Positions 6,194 to 15,459 of a stretch of 64,000 bases of DNA are shown here, piece after piece; position 1 is the first letter of the stretch; every line of letters starts with the position of its first letter. A program made the position numbers and the translations under genes. The stretch is from a virus, in the IMG/VR virus record IMGVR_UViG_3300031420_000003, positions 32,001 to 96,000 of that record; one strand, written 5' to 3'. A model generated the notes under the pieces. The model ran no database searches, was not told the DNA's origin, and saw only the letters and a program-made list of their open reading frames with translations.

Positions 6194-8392
6194 GTGGATG
6201 CGAGAACGATTACCGACACCGGTTGGGTCAGTGCCCTGTTCGGTGGCGCGATAACCCAACGCGACACGCGCTTTACGAATTTGCGTGTGTACAGCGATGC
6301 TCGAATGTCGTTTGCTGATACCACCATGGGTGGTGGGCAGGCGATTAACACCCCACCGGGATTTACCCTGTTTGCCGATCCGCCAGTCGGTGGTGTCTTC
6401 GCGCAGCCCTACGATGAGACCCGTGCTTCATTTCGTAAGTGGCATGACAGCCAAGAGCAACAAGGTTCGTACCGTAACGGTGCGTTCTACTCTGAGGCAA
6501 TTGAGCAAAACAGTTTCTATATCCATTGCCGATTTGGTAAACCCAAATACTTAGGTGTGGCTGCCTTCTTCGCGAACATGTACGACTCCAACCTTGCCTA
6601 CCTCGCCCGTACGGGTGATTACCCGGGCATGGTGCGTACACTCGGAACGTGGGTCACTGCCGCGGCTATCTGGGCAACCTTGGGTACCGTCGCCTTTGGT
6701 GCGCTCCTGATTATCCCGCGTGTGTTGAAAGCCGCACTGAACAAACAGGCTTCGCGCTACTACTACGTGAAGCCCACGATGCACCTGTATCTGCGTGCTG
6801 TGCAGAACATCGTAAACACCCAGCTTATCTACCGCAAACTGGTGCCGACGAATATCCTCGGCTTCTTCGGTGGAAAAGGCTCGGGCGATGTCAACGACCC
6901 GGCAAACAAGTATTACAAGTCCAAAGCGGATTTGTATTCTGCCCTGCCGGATATCTGGAAAGCCAACGGTGAGTTTGACATCTACAAGATGATTAACCGC
7001 TACCAGATACTGGCGAACTATCAGGCGGACACGCTTGAGAAGATTGCCAAAGAGTCGACGTCACCGGAAGACCAAGCGAGTCGCGTGCAGGCGTTTTATA
7101 AAGAAGCACTCTTCACCAACTCAATTGACCCCAACAGCAAAGCCATGGCTGGCATGGAAATCTCACTGGCCGCAATGGAAGCCGCGTTTGCCAAATCCCC
7201 GGGTTACTACGCCGGCTTTACCAACGTCGACAACCAAGAAGATGCGGTGCTGCAAAGTGTGGGCAGTGTGTACTCTGCAGCCGACCAAGGTGGCGGGACA
7301 TCACAGGCCTACGACAACGCCACCGATGTGGAACGTCAGCGCTTGCAGAACCAGATGGCCGCGAATGCACAGGGCGGGGAAGGTGACCAGCCAAACCAAG
7401 CTCAGATTCAGAACTGGATGGATGCGGGTCAGAAGCAGACATTGGGTGACCTCTTCGGAGATTACGCCAAAGAAGCCGAAGGTACCGTGGGGCGCTTTGC
7501 CAACTCCATTGCCACGCAGGCCGAGTCAGAGTTCAAGAACGGTTCCCAGTGGGTGACGTGGAAGATTGATGGGCGGGATACCGTCAGTCGTAACTTCTCT
7601 AACTCCACCAAAGAACCGGAGATTTCCGGTACCGTGAACTCCGCCACCCAGAAAGCCCGTAGCCTCGAGGTGAACCTCTCCGGCGGTAAAACTGGCTTTG
7701 ATGCGGTGGACGGGTTAATCACGGGACTGAAGTCGGCCTTTACGGGTGCCTTGGACTTCTTGCACCTCTCAGGGATTATGTCGCTGTACAACTCCTCGGT
7801 GATTGACTTCCCGGAAGTGTGGGACAGTTCGTCAACCGACGGGGATGACGTCACGCTGAACATTCCCCTGCGTTGTTGGTCAGGTAATGACTTGGATGTG
7901 TTCCAAGACCTTATCGTGCCGCTGTCGTTTTGGATTGCTGCAGCCTGTCCGATTGCCACCGGTAAGCAGTCGTTTACGCACCCCTTCTACGTAGAAGCGT
8001 ACTCACGCGGTCGTCACTCAATTCGTAACGGGATTGTGACCTCCGTGAGCATGAACTTCGGTGTAGGCGGGTTGGGTTGGCGTGTGGACGGTTGTCCGCT
8101 GTCATGTGACATCTCGGTGACCATTCGTGACATGTCGCGTGTGATGTACATGCCGATTGTAACCGACCAGTCAGTTTGGGATGACGATAACAAGTTCACG
8201 GAATTCATGGCGGTGTTAGGTGGAGCTACCCTCCATCAGCGCACCAACGGTATTGACCGTACCATCATGAACGCCCTGAACTGGAAGCAGTCGTGGAAGT
8301 CGGCCTTCTCGGTCGGCTCGGTTGTGAACTCGGTGTTTGACTTGCCACCTGCGCGTGTGCTTGCCAACATCTTCTCGACCCCCGCACGATAG
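6194..8392 (+). CDS. Virion structural/baseplate protein (phiKZ gp182-like by synteny)
   Basis: 732-aa ORF with a GTG start after GAGG, directly downstream of the gp181-like gene. The C-terminal beta-rich segment (GIVTSVSMNFG...PLSCDISVTIRD) is typical of tail-tube/baseplate folds. Confidence 0.65.
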   Translation: MDARTITDTGWVSALFGGAITQRDTRFTNLRVYSDARMSFADTTMGGGQAINTPPGFTLFADPPVGGVFAQPYDETRASFRKWHDSQEQQGSYRNGAFYSEAIEQNSFYIHCRFGKPKYLGVAAFFANMYDSNLAYLARTGDYPGMVRTLGTWVTAAAIWATLGTVAFGALLIIPRVLKAALNKQASRYYYVKPTMHLYLRAVQNIVNTQLIYRKLVPTNILGFFGGKGSGDVNDPANKYYKSKADLYSALPDIWKANGEFDIYKMINRYQILANYQADTLEKIAKESTSPEDQASRVQAFYKEALFTNSIDPNSKAMAGMEISLAAMEAAFAKSPGYYAGFTNVDNQEDAVLQSVGSVYSAADQGGGTSQAYDNATDVERQRLQNQMAANAQGGEGDQPNQAQIQNWMDAGQKQTLGDLFGDYAKEAEGTVGRFANSIATQAESEFKNGSQWVTWKIDGRDTVSRNFSNSTKEPEISGTVNSATQKARSLEVNLSGGKTGFDAVDGLITGLKSAFTGALDFLHLSGIMSLYNSSVIDFPEVWDSSSTDGDDVTLNIPLRCWSGNDLDVFQDLIVPLSFWIAAACPIATGKQSFTHPFYVEAYSRGRHSIRNGIVTSVSMNFGVGGLGWRVDGCPLSCDISVTIRDMSRVMYMPIVTDQSVWDDDNKFTEFMAVLGGATLHQRTNGIDRTIMNALNWKQSWKSAFSVGSVVNSVFDLPPARVLANIFSTPAR

Positions 8393-8394
8393 CA

Positions 8395-8442
8395 AAAAAA
8401 AAGAAGTACCCACTCCTTTACGGGAGTGGGTTACTTTTATTT
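8395..8442. terminator. Bidirectional intrinsic terminator
   Basis: ACCCACTCC/GGAGTGGGT stem flanked by A- and T-tracts between convergent genes. Confidence 0.8.
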
Positions 8443-8444
8443 GT

Positions 8445-8855
8445 TTAGGGTTGGTCACACGTCACGATTTGCCAGACACCGTTGTTGTACCAGACAATCA
8501 TGGCGTTGTGGTCAGCTTCTTTTACCGGGACAGACAGGTAAGGAATTTCCATCCCCAGCGCCTCCGACACCGCGAGGGCATTCTTCCCTTCGGTGCAGTG
8601 GCCCCGGAACTTGCATTCACGCAACAGGAAACCGGCTTGCTGCTCATCGATTTCAAAGAAGCGCGGATTCCCGATACGGGCCCATGGACCAACGTCGTGG
8701 GGTTTATCCACCAACACAATTTCAAACCCGTTCTTCGCCTTCGGTACAAACATATCCCACACCCAATCTGCAATACCGAGATTGAACGGCACAGGCTTGT
8801 TGTTGATGAAGACTCTACTGTTTTCATCCCGATGGATGCGATTAAGTTCGGTCAA
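8445..8855 (-). CDS. Hypothetical protein, paralog family A
   Basis: Fits the packed minus-strand operon; shares the DE..fIN and A..LL...F pattern with 8842-9339 and 12910-13311. Confidence 0.7.
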   Translation of the reverse strand: MTELNRIHRDENSRVFINNKPVPFNLGIADWVWDMFVPKAKNGFEIVLVDKPHDVGPWARIGNPRFFEIDEQQAGFLLRECKFRGHCTEGKNALAVSEALGMEIPYLSVPVKEADHNAMIVWYNNGVWQIVTCDQP

Positions 8856-9347: not shown

Positions 9348-10751
9348 TTATTCGGATACGGTCTCTTTCACGATGTAAGACGCCGCATCGTCTGCGAACT
9401 GCCAGTAATCGATCTTCTCAACCGGCTGATGACGAGTTCCGTCTTTGCCGTCGAGGGTGAACTCGAACAGGACGTGAGGGCGCGGATAGAAGGTGTCGCC
9501 ACCGTAGTAAACGCCGACGCGGACAAACTGCACGTGACTGCCGCCCAGCGTGGCGCGAATGGCATCAGCCGCAGCATTCAACTGCTCTTGAGTAGGCACA
9601 ACCGGGAAGTAAGACACTTCTACGGTTTTCTTTTCAACGAAGCCCAGCTCATCAACCGGCGTGAAGTGCGTCGTTAAACCACGTGCACTACCGCTCTGCA
9701 CGTCGCCGTCATAATCTTTCAGCTGTTCGGTTGGCGACATCTCAGCTTGGATGCTTGGGCCGTTGTCGCCGTCGAAATCGCCAGCCTTTTCGGTGTCTTT
9801 CAGGGCACGTTGGATACGATCGTTATCAGACATATCAGACTCCTTCACAAACACACCATCTGCATTCAGGAAACCGGTGCGGTCTTTGATTTCATCCCAC
9901 GCCATGGACAGGGCTTGCTCCAGCGTGAATTCGTACGCATTAGCCAGCGCGTTGGCAAAGTAGATAGCTTCGGCCAAGTAACCGACAGCACACTGGATCT
10001 GCGTTTCGTCGAACAGGTCTGCGGTCAGCTTCTTCGGTGAATCAACACCGGCTACATCCCACAGGTAGTCAACCGCGACGGTGTTGGACAGACGCAGTTT
10101 GTGATACAGGTAATGCGCGTTACCCAGCGGGCCGTTTTCTTTACGGGACGCTTCAACCATTGGCAGAATAGAAACAGCGTTAAAGCCGCTCAGTTCCATC
10201 AGGTTAACCATCACCACGATCATGTCACCGACACCGTCGATAATCATGTTGCGTTTGGACTTGGCGACACCCGGTGCAATCTCACCGTCTTCTTCGTACA
10301 TCTTGGTCGCTTGGGTGAACCAGACGCCGTTGTCCAGAATGCCGCGCGCCTGTGACCAACCTTTGATGTTATCAATCAGTTCAGCCATGCGGAACAGACG
10401 GATATAGCGCGGGTGTGTCACGATGTTCTTTTTGTCGTGATACAGCGGAACCAGCAGTTCCAGCTCCAGACCCGGCAGGGTCAGTTCGCAGTCGTAAATC
10501 TCTTCACCGCGTTGACGGTTAGCGACCAGCTCTGGATCGTTTTCAACATCGCCGTCTTCAGGTGCCAGCAGACCTTCGATAAACCACTTACCGGTTTCGA
10601 CGTTGCGATCCAGTGAGGAGATAGCACGGAAGAGGATGTTTGCCCGGCCTTCTTTTTTCAGCTCTTCCAGCTGTGCATTAACCTGCGCCAGATACTGGTT
10701 CGGATTCAGCAGTGCAACGTATGGCACTTGGATTACAAATTGATCGCCCAT
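9348..10751 (-). CDS. MazG-like NTP pyrophosphohydrolase with extra N- and C-terminal domains
   Basis: Core IKGWSQARGI...QATKMYEEDGEIA...IIDGVGDMIV and AWDEIKDRTG...GVFVKES match the MazG-like all-alpha NTP-PPase pattern (EExGE, DxxGD). Confidence 0.8.
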   Translation of the reverse strand: MGDQFVIQVPYVALLNPNQYLAQVNAQLEELKKEGRANILFRAISSLDRNVETGKWFIEGLLAPEDGDVENDPELVANRQRGEEIYDCELTLPGLELELLVPLYHDKKNIVTHPRYIRLFRMAELIDNIKGWSQARGILDNGVWFTQATKMYEEDGEIAPGVAKSKRNMIIDGVGDMIVVMVNLMELSGFNAVSILPMVEASRKENGPLGNAHYLYHKLRLSNTVAVDYLWDVAGVDSPKKLTADLFDETQIQCAVGYLAEAIYFANALANAYEFTLEQALSMAWDEIKDRTGFLNADGVFVKESDMSDNDRIQRALKDTEKAGDFDGDNGPSIQAEMSPTEQLKDYDGDVQSGSARGLTTHFTPVDELGFVEKKTVEVSYFPVVPTQEQLNAAADAIRATLGGSHVQFVRVGVYYGGDTFYPRPHVLFEFTLDGKDGTRHQPVEKIDYWQFADDAASYIVKETVSE

Positions 10752-10796
10752 TTGATGTCAGTCCTTAAAATTAATCGATGTTTATATTGGTTAAGA

Positions 10797-10822
10797 AAAG
10801 AATACCCCGTCGAAAGACGGGG
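10797..10822 (-). terminator. Intrinsic terminator after the 62-aa gene
   Basis: CCCCGTC-TTTC-GACGGGG then TATTCTTTT on the minus strand. Confidence 0.75.
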
Positions 10823-10832
10823 CAGGCACTAC

Positions 10833-11021
10833 TTAGATTTTGCAGCCATCGCAATCTGCTTCATCAGAAATGTCATCCTGATTCTCTTCAGCAGAACGCT
10901 TCTCGGCTACACGCGCTTCTGCGTCGTCCAAACCCGGCAGGTCAAAACCGTCTGCGTCATCCGCAACCATTTTGTTGTGCTCGTCGATAGTGGACTGCAT
11001 TGCGCCTTCTTTCTGGGACAT
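10833..11021 (-). CDS. Small acidic protein ending in DCDGCKI (RNR-alpha C-tail-like)
   Basis: AAGGA RBS; lies between a promoter-like motif (11059-11083) and a terminator. Confidence 0.75.
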   Translation of the reverse strand: MSQKEGAMQSTIDEHNKMVADDADGFDLPGLDDAEARVAEKRSAEENQDDISDEADCDGCKI

Positions 11022-11081
11022 CGTCTTTTCCTTCTTTGGTCAGTATAGAGTGTTTCAGCATAGAACTGCTAACACACGTTT

Positions 11082-11318
11082 TTAATCCGCGTGGTATTTT
11101 GCTTGACAGTGAGGACAATCGAAGGAGTCTTTATTGCGCGCCCACGTTATCCGTTTACCACAGCTCACACAGCGGTAGTTGTCGGGCTTGTACTTGATAT
11201 CCACCCGTGCACCGCACTTGCAGTCGTAGCCGGCGATAGAGACAAAGCCTTCTTTATCGTGCATCACCCGTGGTACGAGTGTGTGCTCGCCACACTTGAA
11301 ACAGAGGTTGTGTTTCAT
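11082..11318 (-). CDS. Double zinc-ribbon protein
   Basis: CFKC, CKC, CVSC and CPHC Cys pairs in 78 aa. Confidence 0.75.
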   Translation of the reverse strand: MKHNLCFKCGEHTLVPRVMHDKEGFVSIAGYDCKCGARVDIKYKPDNYRCVSCGKRITWARNKDSFDCPHCQAKYHAD

Positions 11319-11327
11319 GGCCCACCT

Positions 11328-12335
11328 TTAAATGGCGACCGGCGCTTTAATAGCCGGATGCGATTCGTAACCTTCGATTTCGAAATCGTCGAACTGGTAG
11401 TCGAAGATGGAATCCGGCTTGCGTTTGATTTTCAGACGTGGTAACGGGTGTGGGTCACGGGTAAGCTGCAGCTTCGCCTGTTCCAGATGGTTGGAGTACA
11501 GGTGCGTGTCACCACCAGTCCAGATGAACTCTTCAGCCACCATGTTCACCTGCTGAGCAACCATTTCCGTCAGTAGCGCGTAAGAGGCGATGTTAAACGG
11601 CACGCCTAAGAACACATCGGCGCTACGCTGATACAACTGGCAGGACAGACCGCGGCGGGGAATATCCAACTCATCAAGTTCATCATGTAACTGTTCTTGA
11701 TGCTTCTCGTTGAGGTTCTGATAATACCCGCCTGTCCCCTTCAGGTTGGCAAACTGGCCACGTTCTTCGAGAGTCAACTCACGGGTGTAGAACTGGAAGA
11801 ACGCATGGCAGGGCGCTAAGGCCATGTCGTCGAGTTCGCCGACGTTCCACGCACTGACGACGATGCGACGGTTATCCGGGTCGTTACGCAGCTGGTCAAT
11901 GACTTTAGAAATTTGATCGATGTCCTTAGTAAGGAGCATAGTCGCTTCCCGCCACCCGGCCTCTTCCCAACCGTCAGCTTCCATTTCATCGATGGTTTTG
12001 CGGTTAGAGTGATGCACTTCATCGTGTGCTGTCCAAGACCGCCACTGTTTACCGTAGACCGGGCCTAAGTCACCGTTCTCATCCGCCCACTCATCCCAGA
12101 TAGAGACGTTGTTCTCTTTCAGGTAACCGATGTTGGTATCCCCTTTGAGGAACCACAGCAGTTCGTGAATGATGGAACGCAGATGGCACTTCTTGGTGGT
12201 GACCAGCGGAAAGCCTTCGGTCAGGTCAAAGCGCATCTGACCACCGAACATGGAGAGTGTGCCCGTGCCGGTACGGTCTTTCTTTTCACGACCAAAGTTG
12301 AGTACGGTTTCCATCAGTTGAAGATACTGGCGCAT
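11328..12335 (-). CDS. thyA: Thymidylate synthase
   Basis: [36 protein letters not shown] (catalytic Cys), [18 protein letters not shown]. Confidence 0.97.
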
Positions 12336-12910
12336 TATTTGTTTCCTGTCACGGTTTTGACAAACTGACCGAGTTCGTTCATGACGCCCTCAGTCGCTTC
12401 AAGTTTATTCACCGCATTCAAAATGCTGCGGGTCACGACGATGTCTTTCGCGGTGGCAATCGATAACAGTAAGGCTAACGCTTCGGCAAGCTTGGAATAG
12501 AACACGATGTCCTGACGCTGCTTCTCCTGCTCGTTTTCCAGCAGGGCATCAAACAACTGCGTAATCGCTTTGTTGTGCTCAAACAGAATCGTGTTGTAGT
12601 CGTTGCCGAATTTCATCCCCGGTGGAATGTTGTTCAGAGCAGAGTGCAGCACGACCTCTGTAACGGCTTCTACGGGGATGTCCGTTTTACGGGAGTAGAA
12701 CCCGAGAACACCGATAAAAGTCGTCACAGCCTGTCCCACGCCCGCTGAGACCAGAAGACTGTCCATCTTCTGCACACCTTCTGCAACCATGCCCAACATG
12801 CGGTAATATTTGGTGATTTGCTGACGGATGTTACCAAACTGATACACCAGTGCCCGGTCATTCCACTGTTCGACTTGACGGACAACTGCAATTGGATCGA
12901 AATCGGCCAT
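12335..12910 (-). CDS. Degenerate MazG-like paralog lacking catalytic acidic residues
   Basis: Gap-free alignment to the 9348-10751 core ([18 protein letters not shown]...AGVGQ; GQFVK). TAATG coupling with neighbours on both sides. Confidence 0.7.
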
Positions 12911-13311
12911 TAGATACCCCAAATGACGTTAAAGCCCAACATCTCTTCACGGTCGCTGAAATAGCTGACCAGCACGATAGAGTTCGGCTTGAAAGTGGAC
13001 GGCGGATGTCCCTGTGCGACGTGCTTACCGGACAGGGTGCGTAAAATCCCCAATTGACGATAGGCGAACATGCCGCTTGTGAAGTCAGCGTTCTGCAAGA
13101 GCGCGGCAGCGGTGTCGGTTCCAATGCGGAAGCAACCCCCTTTGGCAATGGCGTCCAGCGAGTTGTTCAGTGACAGCTCGTTGGTGATGGTCATGTTAAA
13201 CCCTTTAGCCAGTGCAAAAGCTGTGTCTTTCCAATGGCCGTTCTTCGAGCCCGGAATCAATACGCCGTTAATAAAAGCGCCTTCGTCTTCTTTAAATTCA
13301 ATCGTGTTCAT
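12910..13311 (-). CDS. Hypothetical protein, paralog family A
   Basis: Start moved to MNTIEF (GGA RBS); motifs EDEGAFING and AAALLQNADF. Confidence 0.7.
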   Translation of the reverse strand: MNTIEFKEDEGAFINGVLIPGSKNGHWKDTAFALAKGFNMTITNELSLNNSLDAIAKGGCFRIGTDTAAALLQNADFTSGMFAYRQLGILRTLSGKHVAQGHPPSTFKPNSIVLVSYFSDREEMLGFNVIWGI

Positions 13312-13344
13312 TATAAAGTCCGTTCTTAAAATGGGGGATTTCGA

Positions 13345-13370
13345 CATAACAGGAGACTCATTTGTAAAAA
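13345..13370 (-). promoter_or_regulatory. Phage middle/late-type promoter TTTTTAC-N15-TATG
   Basis: Same spacing recurs at about 8 intergenic sites. Confidence 0.6.
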
Positions 13371-13407
13371 TAAAAAAAAGAAGGCCACCCAAAGGCAGCC
13401 TGTCTTT

Positions 13408-13772: not shown

Positions 13773-14435
13773 TTAAAGCCGGGTTTCGTTATCCCAGTAG
13801 TTACGCAGGAACTCCTGCATATCGGGCGAACTCGGCTTGGACGGTACAGCTTCGGCAATCGCAAACGGGATAACGTCTGCAATGCTTTCCATCTCAAACC
13901 GCTCAACTTCGAGTTCAACTTTTACCCAGTCACCAAACGAGGTGCCCTGTGCCACTGTGTCAAACAGCGCTTTCAGTGCGTCCACGTCGGGGATGTCAGG
14001 ATGGCCTTGACTCACATAGAAGACATCAATGTCCCAATGTTTGCCACCGCTCGCTTTGACCTCATCAGTTGGATCAATTGTCACGCGTTTCACGAGATGC
14101 GTTAAGTAATCATCCCCGTAAAACGACAGGGCGCTTTTCATCCCGATGTCAGAGTTCTCTTCTTCACGCTCTTGGCCTTGGAAGGTCTTCACCGTCAGTT
14201 CCGCTTTATCCGCATGGATACGCGCACGACGACGACCGCCTAACATCGGCATCATCACGTCAAGATGATACTCCCCTTGTTGCGCTTGCAGCCACGCCCA
14301 ACCTTCTTCCGTTGGACGCACCCACATGCAATACTCCCGCTCTTTTTCCACAGAGATGGATTCGCGTGCGACTCTGAGAACACCGTCCTCTTTCTCGCGA
14401 TCCATCTGCTGAAGGATATTACCCAATCGGCTCAT
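13773..14435 (-). CDS. CYTH/triphosphate-tunnel-like protein
   Basis: EKEREY (ExE), RARI, LTVK, REEEN, KRV, WDIDVF and VELEV follow the CYTH motif order. Confidence 0.65.
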   Translation of the reverse strand: MSRLGNILQQMDREKEDGVLRVARESISVEKEREYCMWVRPTEEGWAWLQAQQGEYHLDVMMPMLGGRRRARIHADKAELTVKTFQGQEREEENSDIGMKSALSFYGDDYLTHLVKRVTIDPTDEVKASGGKHWDIDVFYVSQGHPDIPDVDALKALFDTVAQGTSFGDWVKVELEVERFEMESIADVIPFAIAEAVPSKPSSPDMQEFLRNYWDNETRL

Positions 14436-15459
14436 ATTCGCTCAGTACCTTCTGCTGTAAAGCCGCCACGTCAAAGTCGTTATCGAACGGGTCGATATTC
14501 TCCCCTAACCACTGGCAGATGTTTGGCAACCATTCTGCAAACGCCGGCGTTTTAGGGCCGTCGTGTTTCACATAATAGTGCAGCAGAGGCACATGGGCTT
14601 GCACGAGTTCAGCAACCCGCACACCACACGGTGTCCCGTCGTCCATTCTGACTTGGTGGAACTTGCCCGCCATCGCCCAAACAAAGCACCGTTCAATGTG
14701 CAGTGAGAAGGCTCCCGGTTTATACGCCGTGCCGCCGTACACATCGGACTTCATCTTACGCCCGTAGGCAATCGCCTCCAGTCCGTCCATGTGAATCAGA
14801 CGCTGGATGGCCGGGTAGCGACGAATCAACACGTCCAACAGGTACAGGTCGCTTTCCACGCTGTACTCAAGGTCGTGTTGCGTGTAGGCGTAGTCAATCA
14901 ACCGCAGGACGTGGTAATAGCCTTCGAGGGTGGCGAAGTCCCCGTGCAGGGTTCTAAACGGTTGGTCGTCACGCCAGAAGTTACTGATTCTACGGCCCAG
15001 CACCACCCGACTGCGGGAATAGATGTTGAGATGATTCACCCCATCCATTGCAACCGTAATCTCTTGGTTCTTTGGCACGCCTCCGATGTTACGCAGATAA
15101 CGAACAAAGTCATCGCGTTCTTCACCGATGAGATCCAGACGTAAGTCGCCCGGGTATTTCATGACATCATAACGGTGTGCAGCTTCCGGCCCTAAAGAGA
15201 AGCCGTAGCGGTTTGCCATTGCAATACCAAAACGTACATCGTTCGCACCAATCAGGTACGCCCCAACACGTTCAGCCAAATGCAGGTGGGTCTCAAACAC
15301 CGCTGGATTCACACCACAGAGCTGGTCGTGGTACAACCGCTTCAGCATCCGTGGTACGCTATCGTCCCCAGTGAGATTCTGCATGGCACTTATCTCAAGG
15401 ATAAGGTCGCGCAAGATTTCTTTTGCCTGAGGGTCGTCGAAGTCTACAGGTTTGGTCAT
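14419..15459 (-). CDS. NADAR-domain protein with N-terminal extension
   Basis: ISNFW...PF...GDFATLEGYYH and AIAYGR match NADAR/YbiA/T4 gp30.3-type motifs. Confidence 0.6.
   Translation of the reverse strand: MTKPVDFDDPQAKEILRDLILEISAMQNLTGDDSVPRMLKRLYHDQLCGVNPAVFETHLHLAERVGAYLIGANDVRFGIAMANRYGFSLGPEAAHRYDVMKYPGDLRLDLIGEERDDFVRYLRNIGGVPKNQEITVAMDGVNHLNIYSRSRVVLGRRISNFWRDDQPFRTLHGDFATLEGYYHVLRLIDYAYTQHDLEYSVESDLYLLDVLIRRYPAIQRLIHMDGLEAIAYGRKMKSDVYGGTAYKPGAFSLHIERCFVWAMAGKFHQVRMDDGTPCGVRVAELVQAHVPLLHYYVKHDGPKTPAFAEWLPNICQWLGENIDPFDNDFDVAALQQKVLSEYEPIG

Follow-up and report, generated by a model that had tools for sequence, protein, structure and literature searches.

The closest described systems to the locus analysed here are the phage MazG-like nucleoside triphosphate pyrophosphatases (NTP-PPases) and the dimeric dUTPases. 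The locus lies in a 64,000-nucleotide stretch of viral DNA (the window; positions 32001-96000 of the 248,416-bp IMG/VR record IMGVR_UViG_3300031420_000003, which has direct terminal repeats) and contains the thymidylate synthase gene thyA, a gene for a 467-amino-acid (aa) MazG-like protein and, sharing a stop/start overlap with thyA, a 191-aa gene whose product is a paralog of the MazG-like protein without the acidic metal ligands. We read this paralog tentatively, at a probability of roughly 0.4, as a protein of the thymidylate branch that works by binding or regulation, without metal and without hydrolysis.

Phage MazG-like enzymes (PHROGs 7855, 1992 and 715; cyanophage MazG; Atd1) are homologous to the paralog and have in common with it a scaffold of W, Q, K, K and Gly residues and a C-terminal G-x-x-N-x-x-G-x-F hairpin; unlike them, the paralog lacks the EExxE, DxxxD and ExxD sets and belongs to a family of its own, PHROG 10269. 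E. coli MazG reportedly places an active and a degenerate module side by side, as tandem MazG domains that differ in catalytic importance, whereas here the two modules are encoded by separate genes, ~1.6 kb from each other, of which the degenerate one shows the coupling to thyA. Dimeric dUTPases, for example those of C. jejuni (1w2y) and of staphylococcal phage phiDI (Dut, 5myd), ranked highest among the structural matches to the paralog model, over 143-159 residues, and to the MazG core. The phiDI Dut protomer has eight helices (PMC5608427), as do the models of the paralog and the MazG core, and the paralog gene adjoins the gene of an enzyme that uses deoxyuridine monophosphate (dUMP). At the sequence level the paralog has no match of this type (none to PF08761), and unlike the dimeric dUTPases it has no metal-binding acids; phiDI Dut combines enzyme activity with signalling, while the paralog would be unable to use the canonical mechanism.

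MazZ supplies the nucleoside monophosphate (NMP) substrate for PurZ, and this supply logic is the one that we infer for the MazG-like enzyme, dUMP and ThyA. In that cyanophage S-2L system a MazG-like pyrophosphatase is grouped with a nucleotide-converting enzyme (PMC8342488); that module has no dead paralog. The trypanosomatid deoxyhypusine synthase prozyme is, as here, a dead paralog kept beside an active enzyme; it belongs to an unrelated protein family, and in that system the heteromer has been demonstrated (PMC3663545). A jumbo-phage survey (PMC7824862) mentions MazG-like triphosphatases in general terms in the passages covered, and its supplements list MazG-like proteins. Our literature search, those supplements aside, found no paper describing the paralog family, and no relevant paper on the SPN3US orthologs of the paralog (gp228), ThyA (gp229) or the MazG-like protein (gp235).

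Homology, predicted fold and loss of metal ligands

The 191-aa gene is a true distant paralog of the phage's own 467-aa MazG-like protein. To build the paralog family, 1.84 billion representatives were searched, which gave 17 matches at E ≤ 1e-3, 10 at E ≤ 1e-10 and one at E ≤ 1e-30, and a word-index search gave six. Comparison of the resulting paralog alignment (n = 21) with a MazG alignment (n = 9, from the window and IMG/VR loci) by hhalign gave a probability of 97.4% (E 1.1e-11, 182 columns) and paired paralog residues 4-191 with MazG residues 120-312, and BLASTP between the two window proteins gave a 61-residue ungapped match at 23% identity (E 0.001). The paralog profile, searched against its own genome, matched only itself (2e-63) and the MazG-like protein (1.1e-13). 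PHROG 10269 was matched by residues 11-190 at profile positions 9-182 of 299, the window protein being without the C-terminal ~110 aa; MazG families were matched weakly (PHROG 7855, E 7.9e-6; PHROG 715, E 6.2e-5), and the closest ESM-Atlas clusters were viral MazG-like proteins (0.91). An earlier note on this stretch had aligned the 191-aa protein to the MazG core without gaps and had quoted the matching motifs. Those motifs are really aligned, since LAEA and G-x-F-V-K line up with MazG and the BLASTP match is ungapped; gaplessness holds for an N-terminal block of ~80 aa and a C-terminal block of ~55 aa, and the middle contains insertions and deletions in the hhalign alignment.

Domain databases were less informative. 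Pfam MazG (PF03819) had no paralog match at E ≤ 1, Pfam and NCBIfam scans of the paralog gave no meaningful match, and sequence and profile searches of the PDB returned nothing relevant for either the paralog or the MazG-like protein. The 467-aa protein, called an active MazG by the earlier note, has conserved motifs and a strong PHROG 7855 match (Table 1), from which its activity may be presumed, and it scored 13.7 bits against PF03819, below the curated cut-off of 22. No match to dUTPase_2 (PF08761) was found in the whole genome at E ≤ 10, a search of low sensitivity given that it scored above the cut-off in 0 of 14 control genomes.

The paralog was modelled with AlphaFold2 (AF2) from the 21-sequence alignment, giving a predicted local distance difference test score (pLDDT) of 87.6, a predicted TM-score (pTM) of 0.86, and eight helices followed by a small C-terminal hairpin. 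In an exhaustive search with VIA-align the top three matches of this model were all dimeric dUTPases, namely 1w2y (Z 10.3; root-mean-square deviation (rmsd) 4.0, 159 aligned), 5myd (Z 9.8; 143/160) and 2yay (Z 8.3), followed by the short MazG proteins 1vmg (Z 6.9; rmsd 1.6 over 78 residues) and 2yxh (Z 6.4). In BFVD the model resembled Wellington MazG (E 4.3e-7, TM-score 0.78), and viral NTP-PPases overall had TM-scores of 0.64-0.78. The model of the 467-aa protein was weaker (pLDDT 67.8); its core (residues 122-303) has its elements in the same order as the paralog, and its top matches were the same three structures (5myd, 1w2y and 2yay at Z 8.3, 8.2 and 7.2). The paralog model shows the all-alpha architecture around four core helices of the superfamily that includes MazG, dimeric dUTPase and HisE. 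Because the sequence profiles and the two independent models agree, both proteins are, as modelled, most aptly classed among the 'long' all-alpha NTP-PPases, of dimeric-dUTPase type.

Seven acidic residues of the MazG-like protein (E153, E154, E157, D172, D176, E287 and D290) are invariant in 9/9 aligned MazG orthologs. In the window paralog all seven positions are non-acidic, and five of them are acidic in none of the 21 family members (Table 1). The earlier note had reported that every acidic ligand of EExGE and DxxGD is replaced; the hhalign mapping bears this out and adds a third lost pair, E287/D290, that was missing from its list. As the acidic positions are largely gone across all 21 members, the loss, by the alignment, predates the divergence of the family, and one position still varies. 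In Mycobacterium tuberculosis MazG the Mg2+ ion, bound by four such acidic residues, is indispensable for catalysis (PMC10014863). With its metal ligands gone, the paralog would be unable to carry out the canonical Mg-dependent conversion of NTP to NMP and pyrophosphate.

Part of the former site is conserved. The paralog alignment has 9 invariant and 10 near-invariant columns; within the ungapped blocks conservation reaches 90% or more at 18 positions, of which 14 align with MazG-invariant positions and 11 carry the same residue as MazG (W16, G26, Q31, K34, G40, G45, K48, G59, G175, G181 and F183). Conserved residues specific to the paralog are Y23, R37, L39, E44, L52, R161 and N165. With further MazG-invariant residues also lost (see below), the site is remodelled and more than just metal-stripped.

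Selection, linkage to thyA and distribution

The nearest DNA relatives of the region are Wellingtonvirus jumbo phages of Erwinia, with Kwan (82.5% identity across 68% of the query) ahead of Wellington and pEa_SNUABM_11. The ratio of nonsynonymous to synonymous substitutions (dN/dS) was calculated by NG86 between the window and Kwan and Wellington, with a paralog dS of 0.55-0.67, and was 0.022-0.031 for the paralog, 0.08-0.10 for ThyA and 0.22 for MazG in the same genomes; identity to the two phages was 96-97%, 80-85% and 73-74%, respectively. The paralog is under strong purifying selection, and as it is, in this clade, more constrained than the adjoining ThyA, it must perform something that the phage needs. 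Its open reading frame (ORF) is unbroken in 16/16 related loci, at 29-97% identity. That it might be a functionless, decaying duplicate would fit with the loss of all catalytic residues, and is refuted by the dN/dS, the intact frames and the 19 invariant or near-invariant columns, which leave this explanation a negligible probability. Decay, as a frameshift or neutral dN/dS, and a fold other than the all-alpha NTP-PPase fold had been named beforehand as results that could refute the pseudo-enzyme reading. We found no decay, and the AF2 model adopts that fold, in agreement with VIA-align and BFVD; the pseudo-enzyme reading therefore stands, supported by homology, fold, ligand loss and selection.

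The paralog lies directly upstream of thyA in 7/7 annotated phages (Kwan, pEa_SNUABM_11, SPN3US, Asesino, Machina, ChrisDB and Lh1B) and in 9/9 IMG/VR loci, which make up the 16 loci compared here (five of the IMG/VR loci overlap the annotated set). Orthologs of a 133-aa gene stand upstream of the paralog in all 16, and MazG follows 3-5 genes downstream in 15/16, the exception being a 5.5-kb fragment that ends before that point. The paralog and thyA overlap by a TAATG stop/start in the window, and a similar 1-nt overlap is seen, from coordinates, in several relatives, which supports the translational coupling that the earlier note had proposed. Its description of the MazG gene and the paralog as flanking thyA applies to the paralog, which adjoins it, and not to the MazG gene, which is separated from it by a 78-aa ORF, a 62-aa ORF and a terminator-like hairpin. 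By pattern match, this hairpin and another one bracket a stretch that starts with the 133-aa gene and ends with the 62-aa ORF, and would assign MazG to the following unit.

By tblastn the paralog was found in 53 phage records, all 53 of them SPN3US-like phages (of Erwinia, Salmonella, E. coli and Proteus), and the active MazG-like family in 83 records, including small temperate phages. Scans of viral contigs with three members of the paralog family found no loci, and a fusion search among proteins of 575-2000 aa found no paralog fusion, which is weak evidence. Thirteen of the 21 paralog members are 286-328 aa long and have an extra C-terminal domain of ~110 aa that the window protein is without; in the three members scanned, this domain had no Pfam match above the cut-off and one sub-threshold match, to Rep3_N (E 0.0092).

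As one alternative, which the earlier note put first, the paralog could be a regulatory or 'prozyme' subunit that forms a heterodimer with active MazG, whose composite sites would alter activity or specificity. The two proteins are paralogs of one shared fold, and the MazG gene lies downstream in every locus long enough to include it; dimers of this fold reach into the neighbour's active site by a loop (PMC5608427), the paralog lysine at that loop, K48, is kept in 20/21 members, and dead paralogs activate the enzyme in trypanosomatid deoxyhypusine synthase (PMC3663545). We nevertheless consider this role unlikely, since the coupling is to thyA and not to MazG, with a terminator-like hairpin between them, MazG works without the paralog in phage Phobos, phage CR5, Derbicus-type phages and small temperate phages match the MazG tblastn search and are absent among the paralog matches, and the two proteins diverge at different rates (97% against 73% identity to Kwan).

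Alternatively, the paralog could be a protein-protein adaptor without a small-molecule ligand, whose conserved surface would bind a host protein, ThyA or the 133-aa protein and whose NTP-PPase fold would be a scaffold only. The stop/start overlap that it has with each of its neighbours, the invariable presence of the 133-aa gene upstream and the additional C-terminal domain of most family members would suit an adaptor, and phage dimeric dUTPases moonlight as protein-binding signals through Stl (PMC5608427). On the other side, ThyA works without the paralog in Phobos, and Q31, K34 and K48 are common to the enzyme family and easier to explain by ligand contacts, so that we regard an adaptor as distinctly unlikely. 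In a three-chain complex prediction of ThyA, MazG residues 100-320 and the paralog as partner, the scores were 0.85, 0.85 and 0.85, with 0.00 and 0.00 when the partner was replaced and 0.83 when ThyA was replaced, a score that may stem from the chain that was kept; the prediction speaks neither for nor against any binding.

A third alternative, close to the sponge suggested by the earlier note, is anti-defence, in which a remodelled basic pocket would sequester, uncleaved, a nucleotide of host immunity or stress, for example a cyclic nucleotide or (p)ppGpp. Basic residues (K34, R37, K48 and R161) are indeed conserved at the former metal-triphosphate site, and the phage MazG-like protein Atd1 counters TIR-STING toxicity by depletion of (p)ppGpp (bioRxiv 10.1101/2022.06.09.495361). 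The linkage to thyA, however, is fixed across genera, as is typical of core metabolism and not of mobile anti-defence islands, the very low dN/dS is unlike that of an arms race, and cyanophage MazG is inactive on alarmones (PMC6850273); we hold this role to be quite improbable. Known nucleotide sponges (of the Tad1, Tad2 and Acb2 type) were not among the listed fold matches of the paralog, with no dedicated comparison made.

Neighbouring genes and feature coordinates

The minus-strand gene order is 133-aa gene, 191-aa paralog, thyA, 78-aa ORF, 62-aa ORF, 467-aa MazG-like gene, 165-aa gene and 136-aa gene, and the coordinates are given in Table 1. The start of the paralog was set at the ATG at 12910; the mechanical ORF has 195 aa from a TTG at 12922, and the 191-aa start was chosen because the orthologs have 191 aa. 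The content of the slot occupied by the 78-aa ORF differs among relatives. The hairpin upstream of the 133-aa gene is a possible 5' boundary of the paralog-thyA unit.

Table 1. Features of the paralog-thyA-MazG locus (positions in the window) and substitutions at the seven MazG-invariant acidic positions.
Feature	Positions	Strand	Basis or remark
136-aa gene, PHROG 9256	8445..8855	-	E 1.3e-48
467-aa MazG-like gene	9348..10751	-	PHROG 7855 'mazG nucleotide pyrophosphohydrolase', E 1.9e-112
C-terminal extension (aa 306-467) of the MazG-like protein, with stop codon	9348..9836	-	Wellingtonvirus relatives only
All-alpha NTP-PPase core (aa 119-305) of the MazG-like protein	9837..10397	-	All acidic motifs kept
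N-terminal alpha/beta domain (aa 1-118) of the MazG-like protein	10398..10751	-	AF2 secondary structure
Terminator-like hairpin in the gap between 62-aa ORF and MazG	10803..10824	-	9-bp stem, 6 G-C pairs, T-rich tail; pattern match only
62-aa ORF, PHROG 10239	10833..11021	-	E 1.8e-5; orthologs in 5 loci
78-aa zinc-ribbon-like ORF between thyA and MazG	11082..11318	-	Sub-threshold Pfam zinc-ribbon matches only
thyA, 335-aa thymidylate synthase	11328..12335	-	Pfam PF00303, E 2e-116
TAATG stop/start overlap of paralog and thyA	12333..12337	-	Direct reading of the sequence
191-aa disabled MazG/dimeric-dUTPase-like paralog	12335..12910	-	PHROG 10269, E 3.1e-35
TAATG stop/start overlap of 133-aa gene and paralog	12908..12912	-	Direct reading of the sequence
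133-aa gene, PHROG 9744	12910..13311	-	E 1.5e-50
Terminator-like hairpin 5' of the 133-aa gene	13382..13401	-	8-bp stem, then TCTTTTTTTT; pattern match only
MazG E153 to R37 in the window paralog			Arg in 19/21 family members
MazG E154 to M38 in the window paralog			Acidic in 0/21 members
MazG E157 to M41 in the window paralog			Acidic in 10/21 members
MazG D172 to A56 in the window paralog			Acidic in 0/21 members
MazG D176 to Q60 in the window paralog			Acidic in 2/21 members
MazG E287 to K169 in the window paralog			Acidic in 0/21 members
MazG D290 to A172 in the window paralog			Acidic in 0/21 members

Apart from two insertions, at residues 107-137 and 186-229, ThyA closely resembles the E. 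coli enzyme; the blocks aligned to the solved 264-aa E. coli-type ThyA are 1-106, 138-185 and 230-335. ThyA of similar extra length (300-406 aa) is common in jumbo phages of 224-250 kb, including some without the paralog, and the ThyA proteins of Kwan (372 aa) and ChrisDB (385 aa) have still further extra length. The idea that the insertions form a docking site for the paralog was unsupported, as ThyA has 337-339 aa, the length of the form with insertions, in Phobos, CR5 and relatives, where Phobos is without the paralog and CR5 is not among the paralog matches. In a related 239-kb IMG/VR phage (locus L005, 6576-8444) thyA is split after ...CQLYQR by ~825 bp; the insert has ORFs of 98 and 66 aa and, at 7858-8097, a full-model match to the group I intron family RF00028 that is sub-threshold (31.4 bits against a gathering value of 50, E 1.2e-5), and could represent an intron that carries an ORF of the homing-endonuclease type, as T4 td does.

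In the AF2 model the MazG-like protein comprises an N-terminal alpha/beta domain, the NTP-PPase core, a disordered linker and a C-terminal alpha/beta domain (aa 376-464). The N-terminal domain is present in most SPN3US-like orthologs, and the C-terminal extension only in the window, Kwan, Wellington and pEa_SNUABM_11. The C-terminal part had weak matches to cystatin-like folds (Z 5.3-5.7), and the loop with the acidic motif (aa 153-165) was modelled at pLDDT <50. We considered a domain swap, in which the C-terminal extension of the 467-aa protein would be the C-terminal domain of the long paralogs, and rejected it: E was 0.04-0.1 with BLASTP and phmmer, against a tiny database, and the hhalign probability was ≤1%, hhalign found no relation of the long-paralog domain to either MazG accessory domain, locus L005 holds both the paralog and MazG in the short form, and a search of the genome with the paralog profile turned up no stand-alone C-terminal domain of the long form.

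The 133-aa and 136-aa families are distant homologs (hhalign 91.7%, E 7.8e-7, 119 columns), and the two genes are the sole members of their family in the genome. With the 136-aa gene two genes after MazG, each MazG-like gene thus has one member of this family nearby; Phobos has a single copy, far from thyA. The 165-aa protein was not supported as a third relative (hhalign 20.5% and 1.2%, no match with the family profile), and pairwise BLASTP among the 133-, 136- and 165-aa proteins was non-significant for all three pairs. Searches by sequence found no solved relative of the 133/136-aa family, and the ESM Atlas returned nothing for the 133-aa protein.

Beyond these genes, a strong hairpin that is terminator-like on both strands (8408-8431) lies between the end of the minus-strand block, at the 136-aa gene, and the end of a plus-strand 732-aa gene (8392). 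Window positions 13773-14435 matched only the unnamed PHROG 7768 (E 3.9e-104), with no Pfam match at E ≤ 0.1 and none in NCBIfam, and positions 14419-15459 only the unnamed PHROG 652 (E 3.9e-100), with no Pfam match at E ≤ 0.1. DNA near-identical to 9348-13400 occurs in many phyllosphere metagenome runs, at a share of 0.87-1.00 in 10 of them (several possibly the source), and partly in root metagenomes; among the sequencing runs with such DNA there was no RNA run.

Proposed role of the paralog

The 248-kb genome encodes dihydrofolate reductase (DHFR), and searches of it found no trimeric dUTPase (PF00692) and no member of the dCMP deaminase family (PF00383). Because the latter two are absent, the MazG-like enzyme, with its dimeric-dUTPase-like fold, is probably the dUMP supplier of the phage. 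Homology, fold, ligand loss, selection and linkage are directly supported for the paralog; from them we infer ligand binding, an oligomeric state and a link to the supply of thymidine monophosphate (dTMP). The paralog would descend from the nucleotide pyrophosphatase of MazG type (dimeric-dUTPase-like) that the phage itself encodes, would no longer hydrolyse and would be maintained by selection; it has kept the eight-helix fold, the C-terminal hairpin and part of the old active-site helix face (W16, Q31, K34 and K48) and has gained a polar set of its own (Y23, E44, R161, N165 and, where the first Glu stood, R37). It would be made together with thymidylate synthase, apparently as a single transcription unit in which stop and start codons overlap, and would work by binding. 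Its ligand would most likely be anionic, for example a pyrimidine deoxynucleotide, and the pocket remodelled and free of metal. It could then act on the dUMP-to-dTMP branch, into which the active MazG-like enzyme probably feeds dUMP, as a dimeric accessory protein or a regulator.

Several observations weigh against a binding or regulatory protein of this branch. As to the fold, Foldseek against the PDB gave no match at E ≤ 0.001 for the paralog, the best being gp41 helix bundles (E 0.05), and Z-scores of 8-10 can be reached by chance among helical bundles. As to the transcription unit, terminator calls were not enriched relative to shuffled sequence (11 found, 7.6 +/- 3.1 expected). Erwinia phage Phobos (Derbicusvirus) has MazG and an insertion-bearing ThyA and is without the paralog; ThyA therefore has no need of it. 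Further MazG-invariant residues are lost in the paralog (R136, N141, W144, K166, N183, W285, K289, R291 and D298), so that any ligand need not be the substrate of the enzyme, and the pocket may, on this evidence, be unable to bind that substrate or any nucleotide. The helix equivalent to the conserved one also mediates dimerisation in a phage dimeric dUTPase (PMC5608427), and its conservation could thus mean an interface and not a pocket.

Residual or altered catalysis is a further possibility that may count against a purely binding protein, because the E157 position has remained acidic in 10/21 members and a new acid, E44, is conserved. In its fullest form the paralog would be an enzyme with a new, metal-independent chemistry, on a nucleotide or a similar substrate, at Y23, Q31, K34, R37, E44, K48, R161 and N165. 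A conserved polar constellation on the old catalytic face and very strong purifying selection would also fit with such an enzyme, but the joint loss of five to seven acids is the usual signature of a pseudo-enzyme, and we know of no precedent for metal-independent catalysis in the all-alpha NTP-PPase superfamily; we judge it improbable. Taken together, the observation made by the earlier note is confirmed and its interpretation is partly supported.

A more specific form of the binding role, which we regard as distinctly doubtful, is that the paralog acts as a metal-free nucleotide sensor, with MazG or with ThyA via the 133-aa neighbour, and gates dUMP supply by the level of pyrimidine nucleotides, or else sequesters a host signalling nucleotide. 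If true, the sensor would be a phage-encoded 'prozyme'-type regulator of dTMP synthesis, and either the sensor or the sequestering role would be the first described non-catalytic function of the all-alpha NTP-PPase fold in a virus.

The analysis gives a structural and evolutionary identity to the unnamed family PHROG 10269 (SPN3US gp228), which is carried by SPN3US-like jumbo phages that are studied as candidates for biocontrol and therapy. The paralog offers a well-defined case in which a pseudo-enzyme of viral nucleotide metabolism can be put to the test, and it could show how jumbo phages without a classical dUTPase and dCMP deaminase control their dUMP/dTMP supply.

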